Below are positions 3,482-63,120 of a stretch of DNA of 64,000 nucleotides, in pieces; position 1 is the first letter of the stretch, and each line of letters opens with the position of its first letter. The position numbers and the translations under genes were made by a program. This stretch comes from Chitinophagales bacterium. Lineage in GTDB: Bacteria > Bacteroidota > Bacteroidia > Chitinophagales > Chitinophagaceae. The stretch spans positions 1-64,000 of the forward strand of contig JAFLBJ010000002.1 in NCBI GenBank assembly GCA_017303415.1, read 5' to 3'. Below the pieces are notes generated by a model. It saw only the letters and a list, made by a program, of their open reading frames with translations, was not told the origin of the DNA and did no database searches.

Positions 3482-4549
3482 TTAATTAATAACCGCATTG
3501 ATCCTCGCCCATAAGTTATTATCATATCCCGATACAGCAAAAACCGGATTGTTGGGATCACTAAAATCACCCATTCTGACAATGACCATTTTCTTGCTCG
3601 GAATGATATAGATGCGGTTGTCTTGTGCACCCATAGCGGCAAACATGTCATTTGGCGCATTGGTGACCAGGTTCGTGTTGTAAACCACCTGACTTTGGGG
3701 AACCATATACTTCCCTTTTCCATTCAGCCACCACAGATAACCATACGATGGGTTCAAGGTATTGGAGGTATTGGTACTTTCTGTAAAATAAGTTTCATTC
3801 ACCACCTGCTCGGTATTCCACTTGCCTTTATTCAAAGCCAGCAGGCCAAAGCGGGCCATGCTTCGGGTGTTACTGGAATAAATTTTAAATATGGGCCCGA
3901 AATTCCATGAACCATCCATGCCGATCTTGTTCTTCAGCTTGGCCGAAAAATAAGCCTCAAAGCTCTGGTTGGTGGCATCCGCAACCACATCCATCAACTC
4001 CTGAAATACATTTCCATAGGCCCAGCGGTTTCCGGCATCGGCCATATAGGTAAGATTGGCAGGAATGACGAAATTACTGCTATCACTCAACCCGGAGGTC
4101 ATGGTCAATAGATTCCTTACAGTGATCAGGTTTTCTTTTGCCAACGGAGTGCTTGTCCAGCCCGTACCAACATATTGCGATACCTTATCGCTAATGTTTA
4201 AATATCCTTCCTGCTGGGCAATACCTGTTGTAGTCGCTACCAGGGTTTTACCGGCACTGTTCCAGGTCCATTGATCGGTGGAAGTATGGCCATTAAAATA
4301 CTCCTCCATCACAATCCGTCCATTTACCAGGATCATAAATGATTTGGTATTGGTTTGTGCGAGAAAATCCTTCAATTTTTGAATGGAATCCGTTTTCCAG
4401 CCCAGACTGGCTGCGGTTTTTGTTTCCCAGGTGGTGCCGGTTAAAGCAGGGAAATACATGGTTTCCGCGGCGGGGGGATTAGTGTCATCCTTGGTACACC
4501 CCGTTACAAAAAGGGTGATCAGGAGGGAGAGTAGGGTCGTATTTTTCAT
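3482..4549 (-). CDS. Serine hydrolase lipoprotein of the beta-lactamase/PBP-like family
   Basis: Lipobox LFVTGC after MKNTTLLSLLITLFV. S-x-x-K motif (NSAGKT). The ORF-caller start at 4573 is trimmed to Met9. Confidence 0.55.
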   Translation of the reverse strand: MKNTTLLSLLITLFVTGCTKDDTNPPAAETMYFPALTGTTWETKTAASLGWKTDSIQKLKDFLAQTNTKSFMILVNGRIVMEEYFNGHTSTDQWTWNSAGKTLVATTTGIAQQEGYLNISDKVSQYVGTGWTSTPLAKENLITVRNLLTMTSGLSDSSNFVIPANLTYMADAGNRWAYGNVFQELMDVVADATNQSFEAYFSAKLKNKIGMDGSWNFGPIFKIYSSNTRSMARFGLLALNKGKWNTEQVVNETYFTESTNTSNTLNPSYGYLWWLNGKGKYMVPQSQVVYNTNLVTNAPNDMFAAMGAQDNRIYIIPSKKMVIVRMGDFSDPNNPVFAVSGYDNNLWARINAVIN

Positions 4550-11311: not shown

Positions 11312-11372
11312 AGAGATGACAGATGACAGATGACGGATGTTGGACCGTCATCCGTCATCTGTCATCCGTCCA
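11312..11372. repeat. Heptamer-tandem hairpin element, family F1 (GATGACA/GATGACG/GATGTTG units). Sits in the ubiE/engB divergent intergenic region
   Basis: 'gatgacagatgacagatgacggatgttggaccgtcatccgtcatctgtcatccgtcc': the left arm of 7-mers pairs with right-arm reverse complements, giving a 13 bp or longer stem. Confidence 0.8.
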
Positions 11373-11387
11373 CCATCATCACTCTAT

Positions 11388-17676: not shown

Positions 17677-17796
17677 ACGTGAGACGTCAATCGTGAGACG
17701 TCAATCGTGAGACGTCAATCGTGAGACGTGAATCGTGAGACGTGAGGCGTGAGTTGCTTCTCACGTCTCACGCCTCACGCCTCACGCGCCTCACGT
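17677..17796. repeat. Tandem-repeat hairpin element, family F2 (CGTGAGA/CGTGAGG units). Has three 14-mer direct repeats CGTGAGACGTCAAT plus a 20 bp hairpin
   Basis: 'cgtgagacgtcaat' occurs three times, followed by 'cgtgagacgtgaggcgtgag ttgcttc ctcacgtctcacgcctcacg'. Confidence 0.8.
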
Positions 17797-24994: not shown

Positions 24995-25057
24995 AGCGAA
25001 GGTGCAAGTTAAAGAAAAGGGAAGAGCTAAAAATGATTAGCTTTTAGTTATTAGCGA

Positions 25058-26242
25058 TTAGCTTTCGCCTTTTCTGAATTCAAGTATCGGATGCTTTTTG
25101 AACTCTTTTGTCCGGTCAAACAAAAACCGGTAGGTATGTAATTTTCGGCTTCGGTAGGTATCGCCGAAGTTCTCGGCCACATTGATCATTTTCGGGTTGA
25201 AGTCACCGATCCAGAGCATTTCATACCGGGTGTATTGTTTCAGGGGCTGGATGGTCAGTGCCGCTTCATTGATGATGTATGCATCCACGCCAGTGCCCTG
25301 AAATTCAGGGACAATGCCAAATATCAGTCCGCAAAAACTCCGGTTGGGTTTGGTGGCTTTATACCAGAGGAATTTGAGTTTGTGCCAGAGATCGAATTTA
25401 CCATTCAGGTATTTGAACCACTGGTTGAGATCGGGGATATTGAGAAAAATGGCGACCGGTTCATTATTATAATATACAAACCAGGCTACTTTTTCATCCA
25501 TCACCGGCTTCATTTTGCGGAACAGCGTCAATACCTGCTCTTTTTTCATTTGCTTCAAACCGCTATGTCCTGCCCAGGCCTTGTTATATACCGTTGTAAA
25601 ATCGGCTGCATATTTTTCCAGCTTGTTCTTGCGAATATGTTCCGCGCGATAGCCCGGGTCTTTGGATAAAAGGGCATGCCGGTCTTTGATCTTCTGGCTC
25701 ACCGGCAGATCGGGGTCCACCGCAAAACAGGTCTGGGTATAAAATACCTGAAACCCGTAGGATTCAAATAATTTATAATAATAGGGCGGGTTGTAATTGA
25801 GCCCGTACACCGGCGGATTAAACCCTTCTACCAATACCCCCCACCAGCGATCACGCTCTCCGAAATTGATCGGGCCATCCATGGCTTCCATGCCTTTTGA
25901 TTTGAGCCAGTCACGGGCAGCATCAAAAAGCGTGTTGGCGGCCGACTGGTCTTCGATGCAATCAAAGAAACCAATGCCCCCCACAGGCACATCGTCGCCT
26001 TTGTTCTTGTATTTTTTATTGGTAAAAGCGGCAATGCGGCCAATGAGCTTTCCGCGACTGTCTTTCAGTATCCAGCGCATGGCTTCCCCCTGGCGGAAAA
26101 ACTTGTTCTTTTCCGGATCGAATATTTCATTGATGTCCTTGTCCAGCGGACGTATATAATTCGGGTTTCCCTTATTAACAAGGGCATTAACTTTCAGGAA
26201 GTCCCTGCGGGTGGACCCGTCATTTACCTCGATCAATTGCAT
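25058..26242 (-). CDS. Conserved hypothetical protein, possibly with a GNAT-like acyltransferase fold
   Basis: 394 aa. No clear motifs. Recalls a conserved Bacteroidota family. Confidence 0.35.
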   Translation of the reverse strand: MQLIEVNDGSTRRDFLKVNALVNKGNPNYIRPLDKDINEIFDPEKNKFFRQGEAMRWILKDSRGKLIGRIAAFTNKKYKNKGDDVPVGGIGFFDCIEDQSAANTLFDAARDWLKSKGMEAMDGPINFGERDRWWGVLVEGFNPPVYGLNYNPPYYYKLFESYGFQVFYTQTCFAVDPDLPVSQKIKDRHALLSKDPGYRAEHIRKNKLEKYAADFTTVYNKAWAGHSGLKQMKKEQVLTLFRKMKPVMDEKVAWFVYYNNEPVAIFLNIPDLNQWFKYLNGKFDLWHKLKFLWYKATKPNRSFCGLIFGIVPEFQGTGVDAYIINEAALTIQPLKQYTRYEMLWIGDFNPKMINVAENFGDTYRSRKLHTYRFLFDRTKEFKKHPILEFRKGES

Positions 26243-33250: not shown

Positions 33251-34573
33251 GTGAGAAGAACATTCCCCATAATCATCATTCTTATTTCCATTTCACTGAT
33301 TGGAATCATCCTGATCCAGTTATCATGGATCAAGAGCATGACCATTTCCAAAGAGGATCAACTGGAAGCCCAGCTTGTATCCGCTACCCGGATGGTGGGG
33401 GAGGAACTGTCGGTGTACAAAACCACCAGTTTTAACAACCCGCTTACACGGGACAATTTTTCCCTGGATATATTGAAACCACCTACCATCGGACAACGTT
33501 TTAAAGTAACCGAGATATCCGAAAAGATCAGCCGGGCTTTTGACCTGAATGGCATGAAAGGAACAAAATTTGAATTTGCCCTGGTAACAGCCAATTCACT
33601 GGGAGAAGGGGTGATCGAACGGCAAAGTAGCGGATACCAGAAGCTCAGTTACGATACCACCCATTGCAAACAATCCATATTTCCGATTGTAGCGCCCGGA
33701 GGTAGTTTTCTGGAGAACCTCGCTCCAAACGAAATATTGATCGTGGCCATTCCGAATATCAAGTCCGTGGTGTTTCGCGAATTACGCTGGAAGATCGGCA
33801 CCGCCATCCTATTTACCATCATCATTTTTGCGGCCTTCTTTCTGACTGTAAACACCATGTTGCGGCAGAAAAAACTCAGTGAGATCAAGAACGATTTTAT
33901 CAATAATATGACCCATGAGTTCAAGACACCACTGGCCACCATTTCATTGGCGGTGGATGCCTTGAAAAATGAAAAGGTGCAATCTGACCGCGACCGGATG
34001 AAATATTTTAGCAGCATCATCAAAGAGGAGAATCAACGGATGCACCGGCAGGTGGAAACCATCCTCAAAGCTGCTTTGATGGAAAAACAGGAAGTGGAAT
34101 TAATGCTTTCACCGGTACATGCCCACGAAGTGATACAGGATACCGCGCAGAATTTCGCGCTTCAGTTAGAGGAAAAACAGGGCAAAGTAGAATTGGATCT
34201 CCAGGCCACCGAAGATCTTATCCAGGCCGATGAGGTGCATTTTTCCAATCTGGTCAATAACCTGATCGACAATGCGGTCAAGTATGCCAAACAACATGTG
34301 CCCCCCGAAATTCGTATCAGCTCCTTTTCCGATAAGAAAAAACTCACCATCATTTTCGAAGACAATGGCATCGGTATGAGCAAAGAAACGATCCGTCGCA
34401 TTTTTGAAAAATTCTACCGCGCTCATACCGGCAACCTGCATAATGTAAAAGGTTTTGGGTTGGGATTGAGTTATGTCAAAACCATGGTAGAAGCACATGG
34501 CGGCACCATCAAAGCAGAAAGCACCGTAGGGAAGGGGAGTGTGTTTACGGTGGAGATACCTTTTAGGAAATAG
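33251..34573 (+). CDS. Two-component sensor histidine kinase (orphan)
   Basis: TM segment. HisKA H-box MTHEFKTPL. N-box NLIDNAVKY. G-boxes DNGIGM and GLGL. Confidence 0.85.
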   Translation: MRRTFPIIIILISISLIGIILIQLSWIKSMTISKEDQLEAQLVSATRMVGEELSVYKTTSFNNPLTRDNFSLDILKPPTIGQRFKVTEISEKISRAFDLNGMKGTKFEFALVTANSLGEGVIERQSSGYQKLSYDTTHCKQSIFPIVAPGGSFLENLAPNEILIVAIPNIKSVVFRELRWKIGTAILFTIIIFAAFFLTVNTMLRQKKLSEIKNDFINNMTHEFKTPLATISLAVDALKNEKVQSDRDRMKYFSSIIKEENQRMHRQVETILKAALMEKQEVELMLSPVHAHEVIQDTAQNFALQLEEKQGKVELDLQATEDLIQADEVHFSNLVNNLIDNAVKYAKQHVPPEIRISSFSDKKKLTIIFEDNGIGMSKETIRRIFEKFYRAHTGNLHNVKGFGLGLSYVKTMVEAHGGTIKAESTVGKGSVFTVEIPFRK

Positions 34574-34574
34574 G

Positions 34575-34870
34575 GAGGCGTGAGAATCGTGAGACGTGAG
34601 ACGTGAGGCGTGAATGGTGAATAGTGAATGGTGAATAGTGAATAGTGAATAGTGAATAGTGAAAGATATAAAAAAGGGTCAATAGTGAAAACTATTGACC
34701 CTTTTGCTTATACATTATTTTCCTCCCCATTCCCCATTCACTATTCACTATTCACCATTCACGCCTCACGTCTCACGCCTCACGTCTCACGCCTCACGTC
34801 TCACGCCTCACGTCTCACGTCTCACACCTCACGCCTCACACCTCACGCCTCACATACAACAAGCTCCCAT
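34575..34870. repeat. Giant heptamer-tandem palindrome, family F2 (CGTGAGR and GTGAATR units), flanking a central terminator hairpin
   Basis: The left arm (34575-34667) and right arm (34728-34870) are reverse-complementary arrays of 7-mers. The centre (34676-34709) carries 'gggtcaatagtgaaaactattgaccc' followed by TTTTG. Confidence 0.85.
34676..34709 (+). terminator. Rho-independent terminator for the histidine kinase, located at the centre of the F2 palindrome
   Basis: A perfect 11 bp stem, 'gggtcaatagt gaaa actattgaccc', followed by TTTTGCTT. Confidence 0.75.
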
Positions 34871-36080
34871 CTCCATAACTCAAAAACCGGAAGTTCTTCT
34901 TCAGCGCATATTCATACACTTTCTTCCAATCGGGGCCAATGGCTGCGGCCACCAATAACAGCAGGGTGGATTGTGGTTGATGAAAATTGGTGACCAATAC
35001 TTCTACGATCCTGAATTTATATCCTGGTACGATCATCAATTGGGTTCGGGTAATCAATTCCTCCTTTTCATTTCTTTTCAGCCAGGTCAATAATGCCTGC
35101 AAGGCAACCGGTACCGTCATGGAATCCTTTTCAAGTGCATAAGCTTCCCATTGGCCCAGGGTCAGTGAGGCAGGGTGGATAAAGGGATTGAGTTTTGTTT
35201 TGACCCCCAACCAATAGAGACTTTCAATGGTACGCAGCGAGGTTGTACCTACGGCCGTGATGATATACTTGTGGTTTTCGAGAATATTTTCAACCGTTTT
35301 GTAGTTCACATGAATAAACTCCGAATGCATGGCGTGATCGGCGATCGTGGCCGATTTTACCGGCATAAATGTCCCTGCACCGACGTGAAGTGTAATGAAA
35401 TCTGTTTTGATCTTTCGTTCCTCTAGCGATTTTAATATGGCCGGGGTAAAATGTAAGCCTGCAGTTGGGGCAGCGACTGAGCCATCGTAATGCGCGTAAA
35501 TGGTCTGGTATTGTTCCGCATCTTCCACCCGTACAGCTCTTTTGATATAGGGGGGAAGAGGGATCGAACCTGCGGCATGTAATATTTCTGCAAAACTGAA
35601 TTGCTCACTATTCCATATCAATTCGATCAGAAAGTGATCACCTTTTTTTTCCCGGTAATGCGCTTCCAGTGTGATATCCGTATCGGTTATGCGTAATTTT
35701 TTTCGGAGTACCTGACCCGGTTTCCATTTGGAAGCTCCGCCAATCAGGCATTTCCAAAATACACTACCTGTTGTTTGCATGGCCAATGAAATATCGCCAT
35801 GGCGTTCATCGGGTTCGAGACAAAATATTTCGATCTGACCACCGGTTTCTTTTTGAAACAACAGACGTGCTTCCACCACTTTGGTATCGTTGAATACCAT
35901 AAGGGCTTCCCGGGGTATATACTCCGCTATATGGGAATAATGATCCTCCCGAATCTCACCGTCCTGGTAAATAAGGAGTCTTGACTGATCGCGCTCGGTA
36001 AGCGGAAATTCGGCAATGTTTTCTGCCGGTAGCGGATAGGTAAAATCCGCGATGGATATTTTGCTGGGGTCTGGTTTCAT
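34836..36080 (-). CDS. queA: S-adenosylmethionine:tRNA ribosyltransferase-isomerase
   Basis: Start trimmed to MKPDPSKISIADFTYPLPAENIA at 36080. Conserved GSVAAPTAGLHFT and TLHVGAGTF motifs. The stop codon and the last four codons (RREV) come from the heptamer repeat. Confidence 0.85.
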   Translation of the reverse strand: MKPDPSKISIADFTYPLPAENIAEFPLTERDQSRLLIYQDGEIREDHYSHIAEYIPREALMVFNDTKVVEARLLFQKETGGQIEIFCLEPDERHGDISLAMQTTGSVFWKCLIGGASKWKPGQVLRKKLRITDTDITLEAHYREKKGDHFLIELIWNSEQFSFAEILHAAGSIPLPPYIKRAVRVEDAEQYQTIYAHYDGSVAAPTAGLHFTPAILKSLEERKIKTDFITLHVGAGTFMPVKSATIADHAMHSEFIHVNYKTVENILENHKYIITAVGTTSLRTIESLYWLGVKTKLNPFIHPASLTLGQWEAYALEKDSMTVPVALQALLTWLKRNEKEELITRTQLMIVPGYKFRIVEVLVTNFHQPQSTLLLLVAAAIGPDWKKVYEYALKKNFRFLSYGDGSLLYVRREV

Positions 36081-36114
36081 ACAACTAACTGTTGTAGTGG
36101 GTACGAAGGTAGGA

Positions 36115-36300
36115 ATTTTGGATGATGGATGAGAGATGACAGATGACGGATGACAGATGACGGAAGATGGATGTTGGATGTTGGATGTTGGATGGGGAGG
36201 CTTGCTGTCCAACATCTGTCATCCGTCATCTGTCATCTGTCATCTGTCATCCAACATCCGTCATCCAACATCCAACATCCAACATCCTCCTCCCGCTCCA
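36115..36300. repeat. Heptamer-tandem hairpin element, family F1 (GATGACA/GATGACG/GATGTTG), in the queA/mraZ divergent region
   Basis: Left arm: about 11 units of GATGNNN. Loop: 'ggggaggcttgctgt'. Right arm: about 11 units of the reverse complements (CAACATC/CGTCATC/TGTCATC). Confidence 0.85.
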
Positions 36301-47110: not shown

Positions 47111-48519
47111 ACAACGAGTCTCAACATACTGTCCTTATGAATACCCCCTTTCGGGGGAAACGGGTTTATTTCATTGGTATCGGTGGTATCGGGATGAGTG
47201 CATTGGCCCGTTACTTCCATACCCAGGGTGCGCTGGTGAGTGGATATGATAAAACCTCCACTCCTCTTACGAGAGAGTTGGAGGCATCGGGGATCGGGGT
47301 GCATTATAATGAAGATATTACCAAGGTCCCTCAAAATGCGGAATTGGTGGTGTACACACCCGCCATTCCCAAAGAGCATCAGGAGCTGGTTTATCTCCAG
47401 CAGCAAGGATATAACGTAGTAAAACGCAGCGATGTGCTGCAGATGATATCCAACAGTTCTTTTAATATCTGTATTGCCGGTACCCATGGCAAAACGACCA
47501 TTACCACCATGATCGCGCATCTCTTGCGCGATTCTGGCTATGGCTGCAACGCCTTTTTAGGCGGGATCTCTGTAAACTATGGCACCAATTTCTGGAGCCA
47601 TGAACGAAACGTATGTGTGATAGAAGCGGATGAGTATGATCGGAGTTTTTTGAAATTAAGTCCGGATATCGCGGTGATCACGGCGATGGATGCTGACCAC
47701 CTCGATATCTATGGCACAGCGGAGGAAATGGAAAAGGCTTTTATTGAGTTTTCCGGAAAGGTAAAACCATCTGGTAAACTGGTGAGCAAGTTCGGGTTGA
47801 AAAGAGGGAAAGACCTGTTGACACCCGACCGGACCACCTACAGCCTACAGAATGAAAGTGCCGATGTGTATGCCGACAATATCCGAATGAAAAGCGGCAG
47901 CTACACCTTCGATGTGGTGATGAAAGACAATAGGCTGAATGATGTGGTACTGCATATGGGCGGTATGCACAATGTGGAGAATATCACCGCGGCAATAGCG
48001 GTGGCCAGTTCTTTGGGGATCGAAAATGAGAAGATCAAATCGGCCGTGGAAAATTTCCGGGGCGTAAAACGACGCTTTGAGTATATCATCAAAACCGATA
48101 ACCAGGTTTTTATCGATGATTATGCGCATCACCCGGAAGAACTCAGGGCATTGATCACCGGGGCAAAATCTCTGTTTGCAGGTAAAACCTGTACGGTCAT
48201 TTTTCAACCGCACCTGTTTACCCGTACCAGGGACCATGCGGACGGGTTTGCCGAAGTGCTTGACCTGGCGGACCGGGTCGTTCTGCTCCCGATCTATCCT
48301 GCAAGGGAATTACCGATCGAGGGAGTGAACAGTGAAATGATCCTGGAAAGAATGAAAAACCCTAATAAGGAGCTCGTAAAGAAAGAGGATTTGATGAGCT
48401 GGGTCCAACAGTACGCCAAAACCTGGAACAAGGAATTGGGAAATGTGCTGGTAACCGCAGGAGCAGGGGATATTGATGGAGAACTTGTTGGAATAAAAGA
48501 AATATTAAATAAAAGCTAA
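47107..48519 (+). CDS. murC: UDP-N-acetylmuramate--L-alanine ligase
   Basis: YFIGIGGIGMSALA N-terminus. GTHGKTTIT P-loop. 470 aa. Confidence 0.9.
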   Translation: MNNESQHTVLMNTPFRGKRVYFIGIGGIGMSALARYFHTQGALVSGYDKTSTPLTRELEASGIGVHYNEDITKVPQNAELVVYTPAIPKEHQELVYLQQQGYNVVKRSDVLQMISNSSFNICIAGTHGKTTITTMIAHLLRDSGYGCNAFLGGISVNYGTNFWSHERNVCVIEADEYDRSFLKLSPDIAVITAMDADHLDIYGTAEEMEKAFIEFSGKVKPSGKLVSKFGLKRGKDLLTPDRTTYSLQNESADVYADNIRMKSGSYTFDVVMKDNRLNDVVLHMGGMHNVENITAAIAVASSLGIENEKIKSAVENFRGVKRRFEYIIKTDNQVFIDDYAHHPEELRALITGAKSLFAGKTCTVIFQPHLFTRTRDHADGFAEVLDLADRVVLLPIYPARELPIEGVNSEMILERMKNPNKELVKKEDLMSWVQQYAKTWNKELGNVLVTAGAGDIDGELVGIKEILNKS

Positions 48520-48537
48520 TAGCTATTGGCTATTAGC
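48515..48537. repeat. GCTAATAGC-loop-GCTATTAGC hairpin overlapping the murC stop codon. Same stem as the 12951-12985 terminator
   Basis: 'gctaatagctattggctattagc'. The stem is identical to the hairpin at 12956-12978, with a different loop. Confidence 0.6.
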
Positions 48538-48554
48538 TATTAGTCAAGAAAACC

Positions 48555-50724: not shown

Positions 50725-50806
50725 AGGTCCGAAGTCGAGAGTCCGAAGACAGAGGTCCGAAGAATTGACCTCGGACCCCGGACTTCCGACCTTGGACCCC
50801 GGACCT
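50725..50806. repeat. Octamer-tandem inverted repeat, family F3 (GTCCGAAG x3 followed by reverse-complement units), lying between ftsA and ftsZ
   Basis: 'ggtccgaagtcgagagtccgaagacagaggtccgaag aattg acctcggaccccggacttccgaccttggaccccggacc'. Confidence 0.7.
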
Positions 50807-62780: not shown

Positions 62781-62817
62781 TTGCGTGGCAAAAATACGGG
62801 ATTCCCGGGAGGTGGAT

Positions 62818-63120
62818 GTTGGATGTTGGATGACGGAGGACAGATGACGGATGACGGATGTTGGATGATGGATGTTGGATGGCGGAGGCTTGCTGTGCGA
62901 GACCTCTGGTCTCGCACGCATCTCCCGTCGCCTCTGGCGACAGAAATTGATTATTTTTCTAGATTTGCAATAATTTCTTATTCGAGTCGCCAGAGGCGAC
63001 AAGACAATCGTGCGAGACCAGAGGTCTCGCACAGCAAGCCTCCGCCATCCAACATCCAACATCCGTCATCCGTCATCTTTCCTCCGTCCTCCGTCATCCA
63101 AAATCCCACATCCAACCTCC
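62818..63120. repeat. Composite palindromic element with F1 heptamer arms (GGATGTT/GGATGAC). The arms enclose nested perfect palindromes and an AT-rich core
   Basis: The arms share 'gaggcttgctgt' with the element at 36115-36300. Inner units: 'tgcgagacctctggtctcgca' and 'gtcgcctctggcgac'. A 44 bp AT-rich core lies at 62943-62986. Their reverse complements follow. Confidence 0.85.

Follow-up and report, generated by a model that had tools for sequence, protein, structure and literature searches.

A 64-kb window of a Chitinophagales metagenome-assembled genome (MAG), which is the whole stretch of DNA analysed here, contains a palindromic heptamer element of 280 nt (34574-34853) between a sensor histidine kinase gene and the convergent queA gene. 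With a probability of about 60%, the locus represents a genuine, gene-free heptamer-stem hairpin element, similar to an intervening sequence, that fills the convergent kinase-queA spacer. The palindrome itself is real and has the structure described below. Comparison with related sequences shows that unit number and order change much faster than the flanks and that whole unit families are replaced at the site. It also shows that the same architecture forms stems around genes of the PF05635 family, in Chitinophagaceae even with the same units. Most likely, the element does not regulate queA and is selfish or near-neutral.

Structure of the palindrome at the queA end

The spacer from the kinase stop to the queA stop measures 262 nt and consists almost entirely of 7-nt units. 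Tandem Repeats Finder identifies period-7 arrays at 34575-34613, 34610-34663 (7.7 copies, 93% matches), 34727-34762 and 34759-34853 (13.6 copies), and each arm nests two unit families, CGTGAGR on the outside and GTGAATR on the inside. Positions 34588-34671 are 82% reverse-complementary to 34715-34798 over 84 nt, with 43 nt between them. An earlier interpretation made from the letters of the window alone, called here the sequence-only reading, had described a giant mirror palindrome of these heptamers (its family F2) with arms of about 90 and 140 nt. The palindrome is present as described, and the left arm is indeed about 90 nt long (34574-34664, ~13 units), while the right arm is slightly shorter than proposed, at about 132 nt (34722-34853, ~19 units). 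Its parts are the following.

34574-34608, plus strand: left outer arm, about five CGTGAGR-type units (GGAGGCG TGAGAAT CGTGAGA CGTGAGA CGTGAGG)
34609-34664, plus strand: left inner arm, eight GTGAATR-type units (CGTGAAT GGTGAAT AGTGAAT ... AGTGAAA)
34672-34705, no strand: central hairpin, a stem of 15 perfectly matched bp around a 4-nt GAAA loop, with an A-run and a T-run at its sides
34722-34762, minus strand: right inner arm, complement of GTGAATR, four good units and two degenerate GGGGAAT units
34763-34853, minus strand: right outer arm, 13 CGTGAGR/TGTGAGG units in queA sense

The 27-nt junction between the outer and inner families, GTGAGGCGTGAATGGTGAATAGTGAAT, is identical in the left and right arm, and the inner spacers are partly complementary, which identifies the arms as mirror copies rather than independent arrays. 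The loop between the arms is 58 nt long and contains only a 34-nt hairpin. This central hairpin includes AATAGTGAA, the motif named in the sequence-only reading, and its inner stem (GGTCAAT-AGTGAAA) consists of two family units and their complement. It lies about 4 nt from the midpoint of the arms, close to but not at the exact centre where it had been placed. It had also been called the sensor-kinase terminator. The hairpin does resemble a terminator, but the terminator scan is positive only on the minus (queA) strand, with 15 pairs, 5 of them G-C, and the tail TTTTTTAT; the plus-strand (kinase) tail, TTTTGCTT, fails the T-run rule. The hairpin is therefore a better terminator for queA than for the kinase gene.

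Folding calculations show how strongly the arms can pair. The RNA of the region reaches -152.5 kcal/mol on the plus strand and -176.3 kcal/mol on the minus strand (z = -15.0 and -15.9, with none of 100 shuffles as good), and the DNA reaches -93.4 kcal/mol (z = -15.6). In centroid structures of transcripts that end at the central hairpin, pairing is confined to that hairpin. Rfam returns only sub-threshold matches to eukaryotic microRNA precursors (at most 49 bits, against gathering thresholds of 52-100), so that a known RNA family is rejected in favour of a generic long hairpin, and it finds no rRNA at the element, which lies between the kinase gene and queA. G-quadruplex formation cannot account for the element either, because neither CGTGAGR nor GTGAATR units contain the G3 tracts (GGG) involved.

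Each sense-strand unit of the element carries TGA. The left arms carry five to six stops in each of the three plus-strand frames, and the minus strand there has none; the right outer arm has five to seven in every minus-strand frame and none on the plus strand. Both strands also yield the long, periodic, artefactual open reading frames (ORFs) that the sequence-only reading had pointed out, with 113 and 87 aa on the plus strand and 39 aa on the minus strand.

The genes on either side meet the repeat in different ways, as the following features show.

33251-34573, plus strand: sensor histidine kinase gene (Pfam HisKA and HATPase_c)
34836-36080, minus strand: queA, S-adenosylmethionine:tRNA ribosyltransferase-isomerase (414 aa, ATG at 36080, Pfam PF02547, E = 4e-97)
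34836-34853, minus strand: last five queA codons (V R R E V) and TGA, all within CGTGAGG/TGTGAGG repeat units

The kinase gene retains its own stop (TAG, 34571-34573), with the left arm beginning 1-2 nt further on, and its C-terminus, ...EIPFRK, is the same in the related loci L217 and L007 (L-numbers denote sequences gathered for comparison). The queA gene ends ...YGDGSLL-Y-V-R-R-E-V-TGA, with the TGA at 34836-34838 inside a repeat unit and the VRREV codons at 34839-34853; the stop codon is thus supplied by the repeat, as had been proposed. The window protein is identical to MBN8668591.1 from a Chitinophagales MAG, the YVRREV tail included. A longer queA ORF of 459 aa is an artefact with 45 spurious N-terminal residues (36081-36215) and periodic peptides such as HPSSVICHPSSVISHPSS. 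It is over-extended because it reads through the array at 36119-36194, and the true start is the ATG at 36080.

The Pfam Queuosine_synth profile stops at SLL, six residues ahead of the queA stop, and QueA proteins of more distant Chitinophagaceae end in ...YGDGSLLW followed by 0-9 variable residues, with no array. In the closest array-free relative (L217, 79% amino-acid identity), QueA ends SMLFLHKK-TAA and the convergent kinase gene lies 8 nt on. Tails within the 90%-identity cluster read YVRREV (window), YVRRET (L001), YVRREA (L232) and FLNKK, FLKKA or FLKKV, and which residue comes last depends on the unit variant, GTG-TGA, ACG-TGA or GCG-TGA. These tails show that the window QueA tail is derived and that the repeat replaced a short, unconstrained native tail. 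An insertion or expansion of the repeat at queA's 3' end, as the sequence-only reading had proposed, is borne out by the same contrast, between FLHKK in array-free L217 and YVRRE followed by V, T or A in array-bearing strains. The repeat has overwritten the last five queA codons and the stop without harm. Since each sense arm has stops in all three frames, spread over a gene end only swaps a few C-terminal residues, as in QueA.

Turnover of unit families among relatives

Related genomes reveal how quickly the spacer changes. Contigs that are identical in the kinase and 98.4-99% identical in DNA already differ in the unit order of the left arm. At 94% nucleotide identity, L001 has four CGTGAGR units per arm and a 44-nt spacer, without the inner arm or the hairpin. 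The same spacer holds a 69-nt AAATAAG palindrome in L233, which also encodes the QueA tail and stop, an AATTATT array in L216, and a GTGAATR palindrome only in L007, where the queA TGA lies inside a GTGAATG unit. In L020, which belongs to a different Chitinophagaceae genus (QueA 55% identical), the queA-kinase spacer contains a one-sided array of 322 nt (4219-4540) with ~46 GTGAGAY/GTGAAAK units and only two to three inverted units on the kinase side. Orthologous spacers thus lack the array (L217), carry a shorter one (L001) or carry other families (L233, L216, L007).

These comparisons mark the queA-kinase spacer as a hot spot of heptamer-family turnover, occupied by CGTGAGR with GTGAATR, CGTGAGR alone, GTGAATR alone, AAATAAG or AATTATT. 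Such replacement of one family by another argues against a single insertion. A similar pattern occurs upstream of mraZ, where three lineages (the window, L002/L003 and L007) have three unit families within the same outer boundary. The array period is not strictly 7, since the queA-mraZ spacer of L007 (82% identical; 2819-2955) holds an octamer palindrome made of seven copies each of GGGTGAAT and TATTCACC. The loop at the queA-end (F2) site of L007 contains AATAGCTAAT. A rule by which every array takes its units from the stop codon beside it was considered and rejected: it is attractive for the AAATAAG units of L233, and it fails because the same families occur at unlinked loci and in other phyla and because some families, such as GGGAACA, contain no stop.

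The strain-level variation could also come from plain microsatellites, each convergent gene having gained its own slippage-prone heptamer array, with the palindrome as a by-product unrelated to intervening sequences. Unit polymorphism between strains agrees with this account, the L233 units look seeded from the queA tail AAT-AAG-AAA-TAA, and two convergent genes would in any case give both arms a sense orientation. Heptamers are, moreover, the commonest long simple repeats in bacteria and have been ascribed to polymerase slippage (Mrazek 2007, as summarised in PMC4679880). Independent arrays, however, would not be expected to share a 27-nt junction, the same outer-to-inner order and partly complementary spacers, all of which mark the arms as mirror copies. 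The palindromic layout also appears between co-directional and divergent genes (arrays at 11314, 17677, 36119, 50725 and 62813), and unlinked loci as well as the surroundings of PF05635 genes show the same unit families. Taken together, these observations make the microsatellite account unlikely.

Position, polarity and PF05635 genes

A scan of public metagenomes for CGTGAGR arrays identified at least 80 loci, and their G+C content of 36-72% shows that they come from many taxa. Among the matches listed, the GTGA repeats read in the sense direction of the gene with the adjoining stop. In these listed matches, the array lies no more than 20 nt from the stop codon in 32 of 41 sense-side cases (median 3) and in 4 of 42 antisense-side cases (median 85; Fisher p = 1e-10). 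A unit contains the stop codon in 16 of the 41, at offsets of -5, -12 or -19 nt, so that a repeat-supplied stop is common for this type of repeat, and close array pairs have the purine arm first in 8 of 8. The sequences point to a general rule: the stop-rich purine arm is always 5' and adjoins or overlaps the stop codon of the upstream gene.

PF05635 corresponds to S23p/IVP, the 23S rRNA intervening-sequence protein (IVP), which is a four-helix bundle. Such a gene, encoding 115-120 aa, stands between two arrays at 4 of the 80 metagenome loci (L100, L107, L116 and L144, among the matches listed). An independent test used 14 plasmid PF05635 genes picked by protein sequence alone (L218-L231), and in 12 of them a purine-rich array of period 7-8 precedes the gene, with a complementary array behind it. 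Their hosts are Nostoc, Calothrix, Anabaena, Geminocystis, Picosynechococcus, Stanieria, Leptolyngbya, Gemmatirosa, Riemerella and Azospirillum. Of the two exceptions, one has a downstream arm only and the other has direct arrays; the latter, L227 from a Pseudanabaena galeata plasmid, carries AAAAGCT x14 upstream and AAAAGCC x10 downstream of the gene. The PF05635 gene of L229 (Azospirillum lipoferum) lies in a large-subunit (LSU) rRNA gene (Rfam, 479 bits), a position that makes it a classical 23S rRNA intervening sequence, and its stems are built of GAGGACG/GATGACA units.

The closest connection to the queA-end element comes from Chitinophagaceae. The PF05635 subfamily of L116 is of Chitinophagaceae type, with 70% identity to Niabella soli and 73% to a Chitinophagaceae MAG. 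PF05635 genes of Niabella soli and other Chitinophagaceae are flanked by CGTGAGA/CGTGAAA on one side and TTTCACG/TCTCACG on the other, the same unit family as in the queA-end element. One group of these elements has the hemB stop inside the first unit.

Nearly all PF05635 genes examined (L100/L107/L116/L144, L218-L231, L236-L255) are enclosed by inverted arrays of 7-8-nt units with the purine arm first, and this architecture spans Cyanobacteria, Bacteroidota, Gemmatimonadota and Alphaproteobacteria. The stem units vary by lineage and include GGGAACA, GGGAGTA, AGGGTGT, AAAAGGG, CAGGAGT, GGTTYAA and GGAGGGCA, among others. Many of the elements lie between genes of one operon and start right behind the upstream stop codon. 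Examples include the CRISPR-cas operon arrangements cas6-IVP-cas4 and cas10-IVP-cmr3 (L223, L225, L227), a position between two ribonucleotide reductase genes (L222), one between the membrane-fusion and pump genes of a resistance-nodulation-division (RND) system (L240-L249), and one after hemB (L236/L250). These operon positions suggest tolerance or RNA-level processing. Many contigs with PF05635 genes of Chitinophagaceae type measure only 500-2000 nt, about the length of a single gene, which fits assembly breaks at the flanking arrays; PF05635 elements are probably under-represented in metagenome assemblies. A deleted gene in the loop of the queA-end element was considered and dropped, the resemblance to PF05635 leaders (GGGTCAATAGTGAAAAC versus CGATCAATAAAGAAAAC in L240) being by eye only and too weak. 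In the literature searched, S23p genes are tied to heptamer repeats only in a Coxiella study (PMC4990558).

The window itself contains further arrays of this kind.

11314-11380, 17677-17795, 36119-36290, 50725-50806 and 62813-63120: five further palindromic arrays, purine arm first in all

With the queA-end element included, the purine-rich arm is 5' in all six window arrays. The five others use GATGACR/GGATGTT, CGTGAGA-CGTCAAT and the 14-mer GGTCCGAAGACAGA as units. The palindromes of the window sit between divergent, co-directional and convergent genes, and arrays at gene 3' ends begin within ~12 nt of the stop codon (17799, 50723, 63126). Two short ATTAGCT/AGCTATT arrays of ~4 copies each lie at 25036-25063 and 48514-48543. 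The loop of the 62813-63120 array contains a nested-hairpin core of 161 nt (62884-63044), with 35-nt inverted ends (GGAGGCTTGCTGTGCGAGACCTCTGGTCTCGCAC) and, inside, GCGAGACC and GTCGCC hairpins. The end of this core recurs upstream of queA/mraZ in L002 (1-29) and L234 (1-33), with a different arm family (F2 in L002), and a solo GGAGGCTTGCTGT is found at 36197-36209. The core resembles small mobile cargo carried in array loops.

Such recurrence raises the question of whether the element is mobile, in the manner of MITEs (miniature inverted-repeat transposable elements) or repetitive extragenic palindromic (REP) sequences, and is mobilised in trans, perhaps by PF05635-bearing elements. A non-autonomous element of this type would account for the same unit families at several loci, for the families swapped upstream of mraZ between precisely matching boundaries (window versus L002/L003 versus L007), and for the way in which the 161-nt core, with its 35-nt inverted ends, turns up at several loci in the company of different arm families; the gene-bearing and gene-free versions would then parallel transposon/MITE pairs. 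The expected marks of transposition are nevertheless missing. No copy of constant length was found, BLAST against the window and all fetched loci detects no second copy of the element centre (F2), and no target-site duplication is visible at 34574 or 34853. The arms are unequal (~13 versus ~19 units) and vary between strains, no transposase is linked to arrays in the sequences examined (the window not having been screened for transposases), and we know of no transposase activity of PF05635. Mobility of this kind is accordingly quite improbable.

Possible mechanism and relation to known systems

Two further explanations have less room. It is very unlikely that the locus is a regulatory or phase-variable element, in which unit number tunes queA or the kinase gene or the repeats form a protein-binding platform. 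Heptamer repeats do tune hmw1A of H. influenzae through an RNase III-cut hairpin (PMC12721329), and the strict sense orientation and stop-codon position could reflect a binding site in the 3' untranslated region (UTR). With stops in all frames, however, changes in unit number cannot switch queA and affect only its last residues; these stops, in all three sense frames, together with natural variants that alter only the last 1-5 residues of QueA, rule out a phase-variation switch. Close relatives have different families, or none, in the spacer, which argues against a conserved regulatory role, and the neighbours are housekeeping genes of unrelated function. An assembly artefact, through fold-back or a collapsed repeat in the MAG, is barely credible: every contig of the short-read assemblies breaks inside arrays and the much shorter L001 version could be a collapse, yet both flanks carry unique genes syntenic with those of relatives, an independent short-read contig (L088, SRR13786855, flank 100% identical) is identical over the initial 56 nt of the left arm, including the CGTGAGG-to-CGTGAAT junction, the NCBI protein MBN8668591.1 has the same YVRREV tail, QueA tails differ among orthologues, and L001, L007 and L233 have palindromic arrays at the same spacer.

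For the heptamer-stem hairpin element, a simple course of events can be proposed. Arrays would grow and shrink by replication slippage, and mirror arms could arise by inverted duplication or template switching. Normal transcripts would end at the central hairpin and leave an unstructured 3' UTR of GUGA repeats, while read-through RNA would fold into a stem of ~85 bp. By analogy with intervening sequences and the 5' UTR of H. influenzae hmw, this stem may be an RNase III-type substrate that insulates the convergent genes. In RNA, the element thus probably acts as a terminator combined with an RNase III-type stem. Rho prefers C-rich, unstructured RNA. The fixed polarity might be related to this preference, as a purine arm made first would leave the C-rich arm paired once made.

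Several points weigh against reading the locus as an intervening-sequence-like element. Neither the 64-kb window nor the loci of close relatives contain a PF05635 gene detectable by tblastn or a purpose-built hidden Markov model, so that shared architecture and units, rather than physical association in this genome, are what connects the locus to intervening-sequence-type elements, and PF05635 genes might simply insert into pre-existing palindromes. The sequence of the central hairpin is unique, which leaves arrival of the element as a unit unsupported. The giant stem would seldom arise in RNA should the central terminator work efficiently. Selection at the RNA level, expected to show as more G-U pairs or a better fold on the transcribed strand, was examined in three co-directional arrays only, and the transcribed strand folds better in two of the three. 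RNase III cleavage, termination and slippage are themselves inferred.

A broader hypothesis, attractive in scope and doubtful for now, would treat palindromic heptamer arrays as the abundant gene-free form of a cross-phylum hairpin family. The PF05635 elements would be its gene-bearing form and rRNA intervening sequences a special case, with IVP acting in trans as a factor that binds the stems and creates, maintains or spreads them. IVP is presumably a relative of Avd of diversity-generating retroelements. If true, this hypothesis would explain the lineage-specific heptamer excess, the stop-codon position and the purine-first polarity together.

Heptamer arrays on the one hand and 23S intervening sequences with S23p on the other have been described for decades in largely separate literatures and, to our knowledge, have no known function. 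The present locus and the gathered sequences tie the two classes through stem architecture, fixed polarity, stop-codon position and strain-level unit variation, and in Chitinophagaceae even the same units are common to both. If the link is true, it makes S23p/IVP function testable, through stem binding and through a role of IVP or RNase III in driving repeat turnover. The arrays also have practical effects: they break short-read assemblies, produce spurious periodic ORFs, extend genes falsely (queA at 459 instead of 414 aa) and rewrite protein C-termini between strains.

Among known systems, REP sequences, bacterial interspersed mosaic elements (BIMEs) and MITEs resemble the element in being intergenic and palindromic, in following stop codons and in being able to stabilise or terminate transcripts. 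REP and MITE families consist of fixed-length consensus copies; in the element, the tandem units vary, the centre is unique and a target duplication is absent. TAACTGA heptamer repeats occur in Beggiatoaceae, Cyanobacteria and some Bacteroidetes (PMC4679880) and share intergenic heptamer arrays, strain indels in 7-nt steps, assembly breaks and presence in Bacteroidetes; they differ in being mostly direct arrays just upstream of start codons, with one inverted set reported. In H. influenzae, the (ATCTTTC)n repeat in the hmw1A 5' UTR forms one arm of a long RNA hairpin that is cut by RNase III, and its expansion and contraction need transcription and hairpin folding (PMC12721329). A heptamer repeat thus forms an arm of a long hairpin in both cases. 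There, it lies in a 5' UTR, tunes one adhesin gene and faces a non-repeat, G-rich arm, whereas the queA-end element has repeats in both of its arms, at the 3' ends of genes.

The nearest gene-free counterparts are the inverted heptamer pairs of Xanthomonas, where GGGAATC arrays form 70-75 inverted pairs per genome that lie on the coding strand near a stop codon or across it (PMC4692102), and of Nostoc, with GGGGAYT (Rehm et al. 2015, PMC4692102). The queA-end element shares with them tandem 7-nt units, convergent arrays on opposite strands, an intergenic position, a purine- or G-rich strand that is the coding strand and begins 0-50 bp from the stop or overlaps it, and length variation between close relatives. 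It differs by its lack of G3 tracts, its two nested families per arm, its central terminator hairpin, the TGA in every sense unit and its Chitinophagales host. The element has the defining features of inverted heptameric simple-sequence repeats (Mrazek 2007; Rehm 2015) and falls outside their G-quadruplex subclass. 

Intervening sequences of 23S rRNA occur in helix 9, 25 or 45, some with a PF05635 ORF in the loop, and Leptospira provides one example. Another is Coxiella burnetii, whose intervening sequence has a strain-variable (GACAGAT)n stem that is cut by RNase III at the first repeat (PMC4990558); GACAGAT is the same unit as in the GATGACR family of the window. The queA-end element resembles these sequences in its long stem of terminal inverted, strain-variable heptamer repeats with the purine arm 5'. 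Their loop holds cargo such as the S23p/IVP gene, whereas the loop at the queA end holds the 34-nt hairpin only. The element also lies between protein-coding genes rather than in an rRNA helix, and its arms are much longer, with 13-19 units against 2-4. Since it lies outside rRNA and contains no ORF, it is not classed as an intervening sequence despite the stem architecture. The locus is a variant of inverted heptamer pairs and intervening-sequence stems, and the broader link between these two classes is the more interesting lead.

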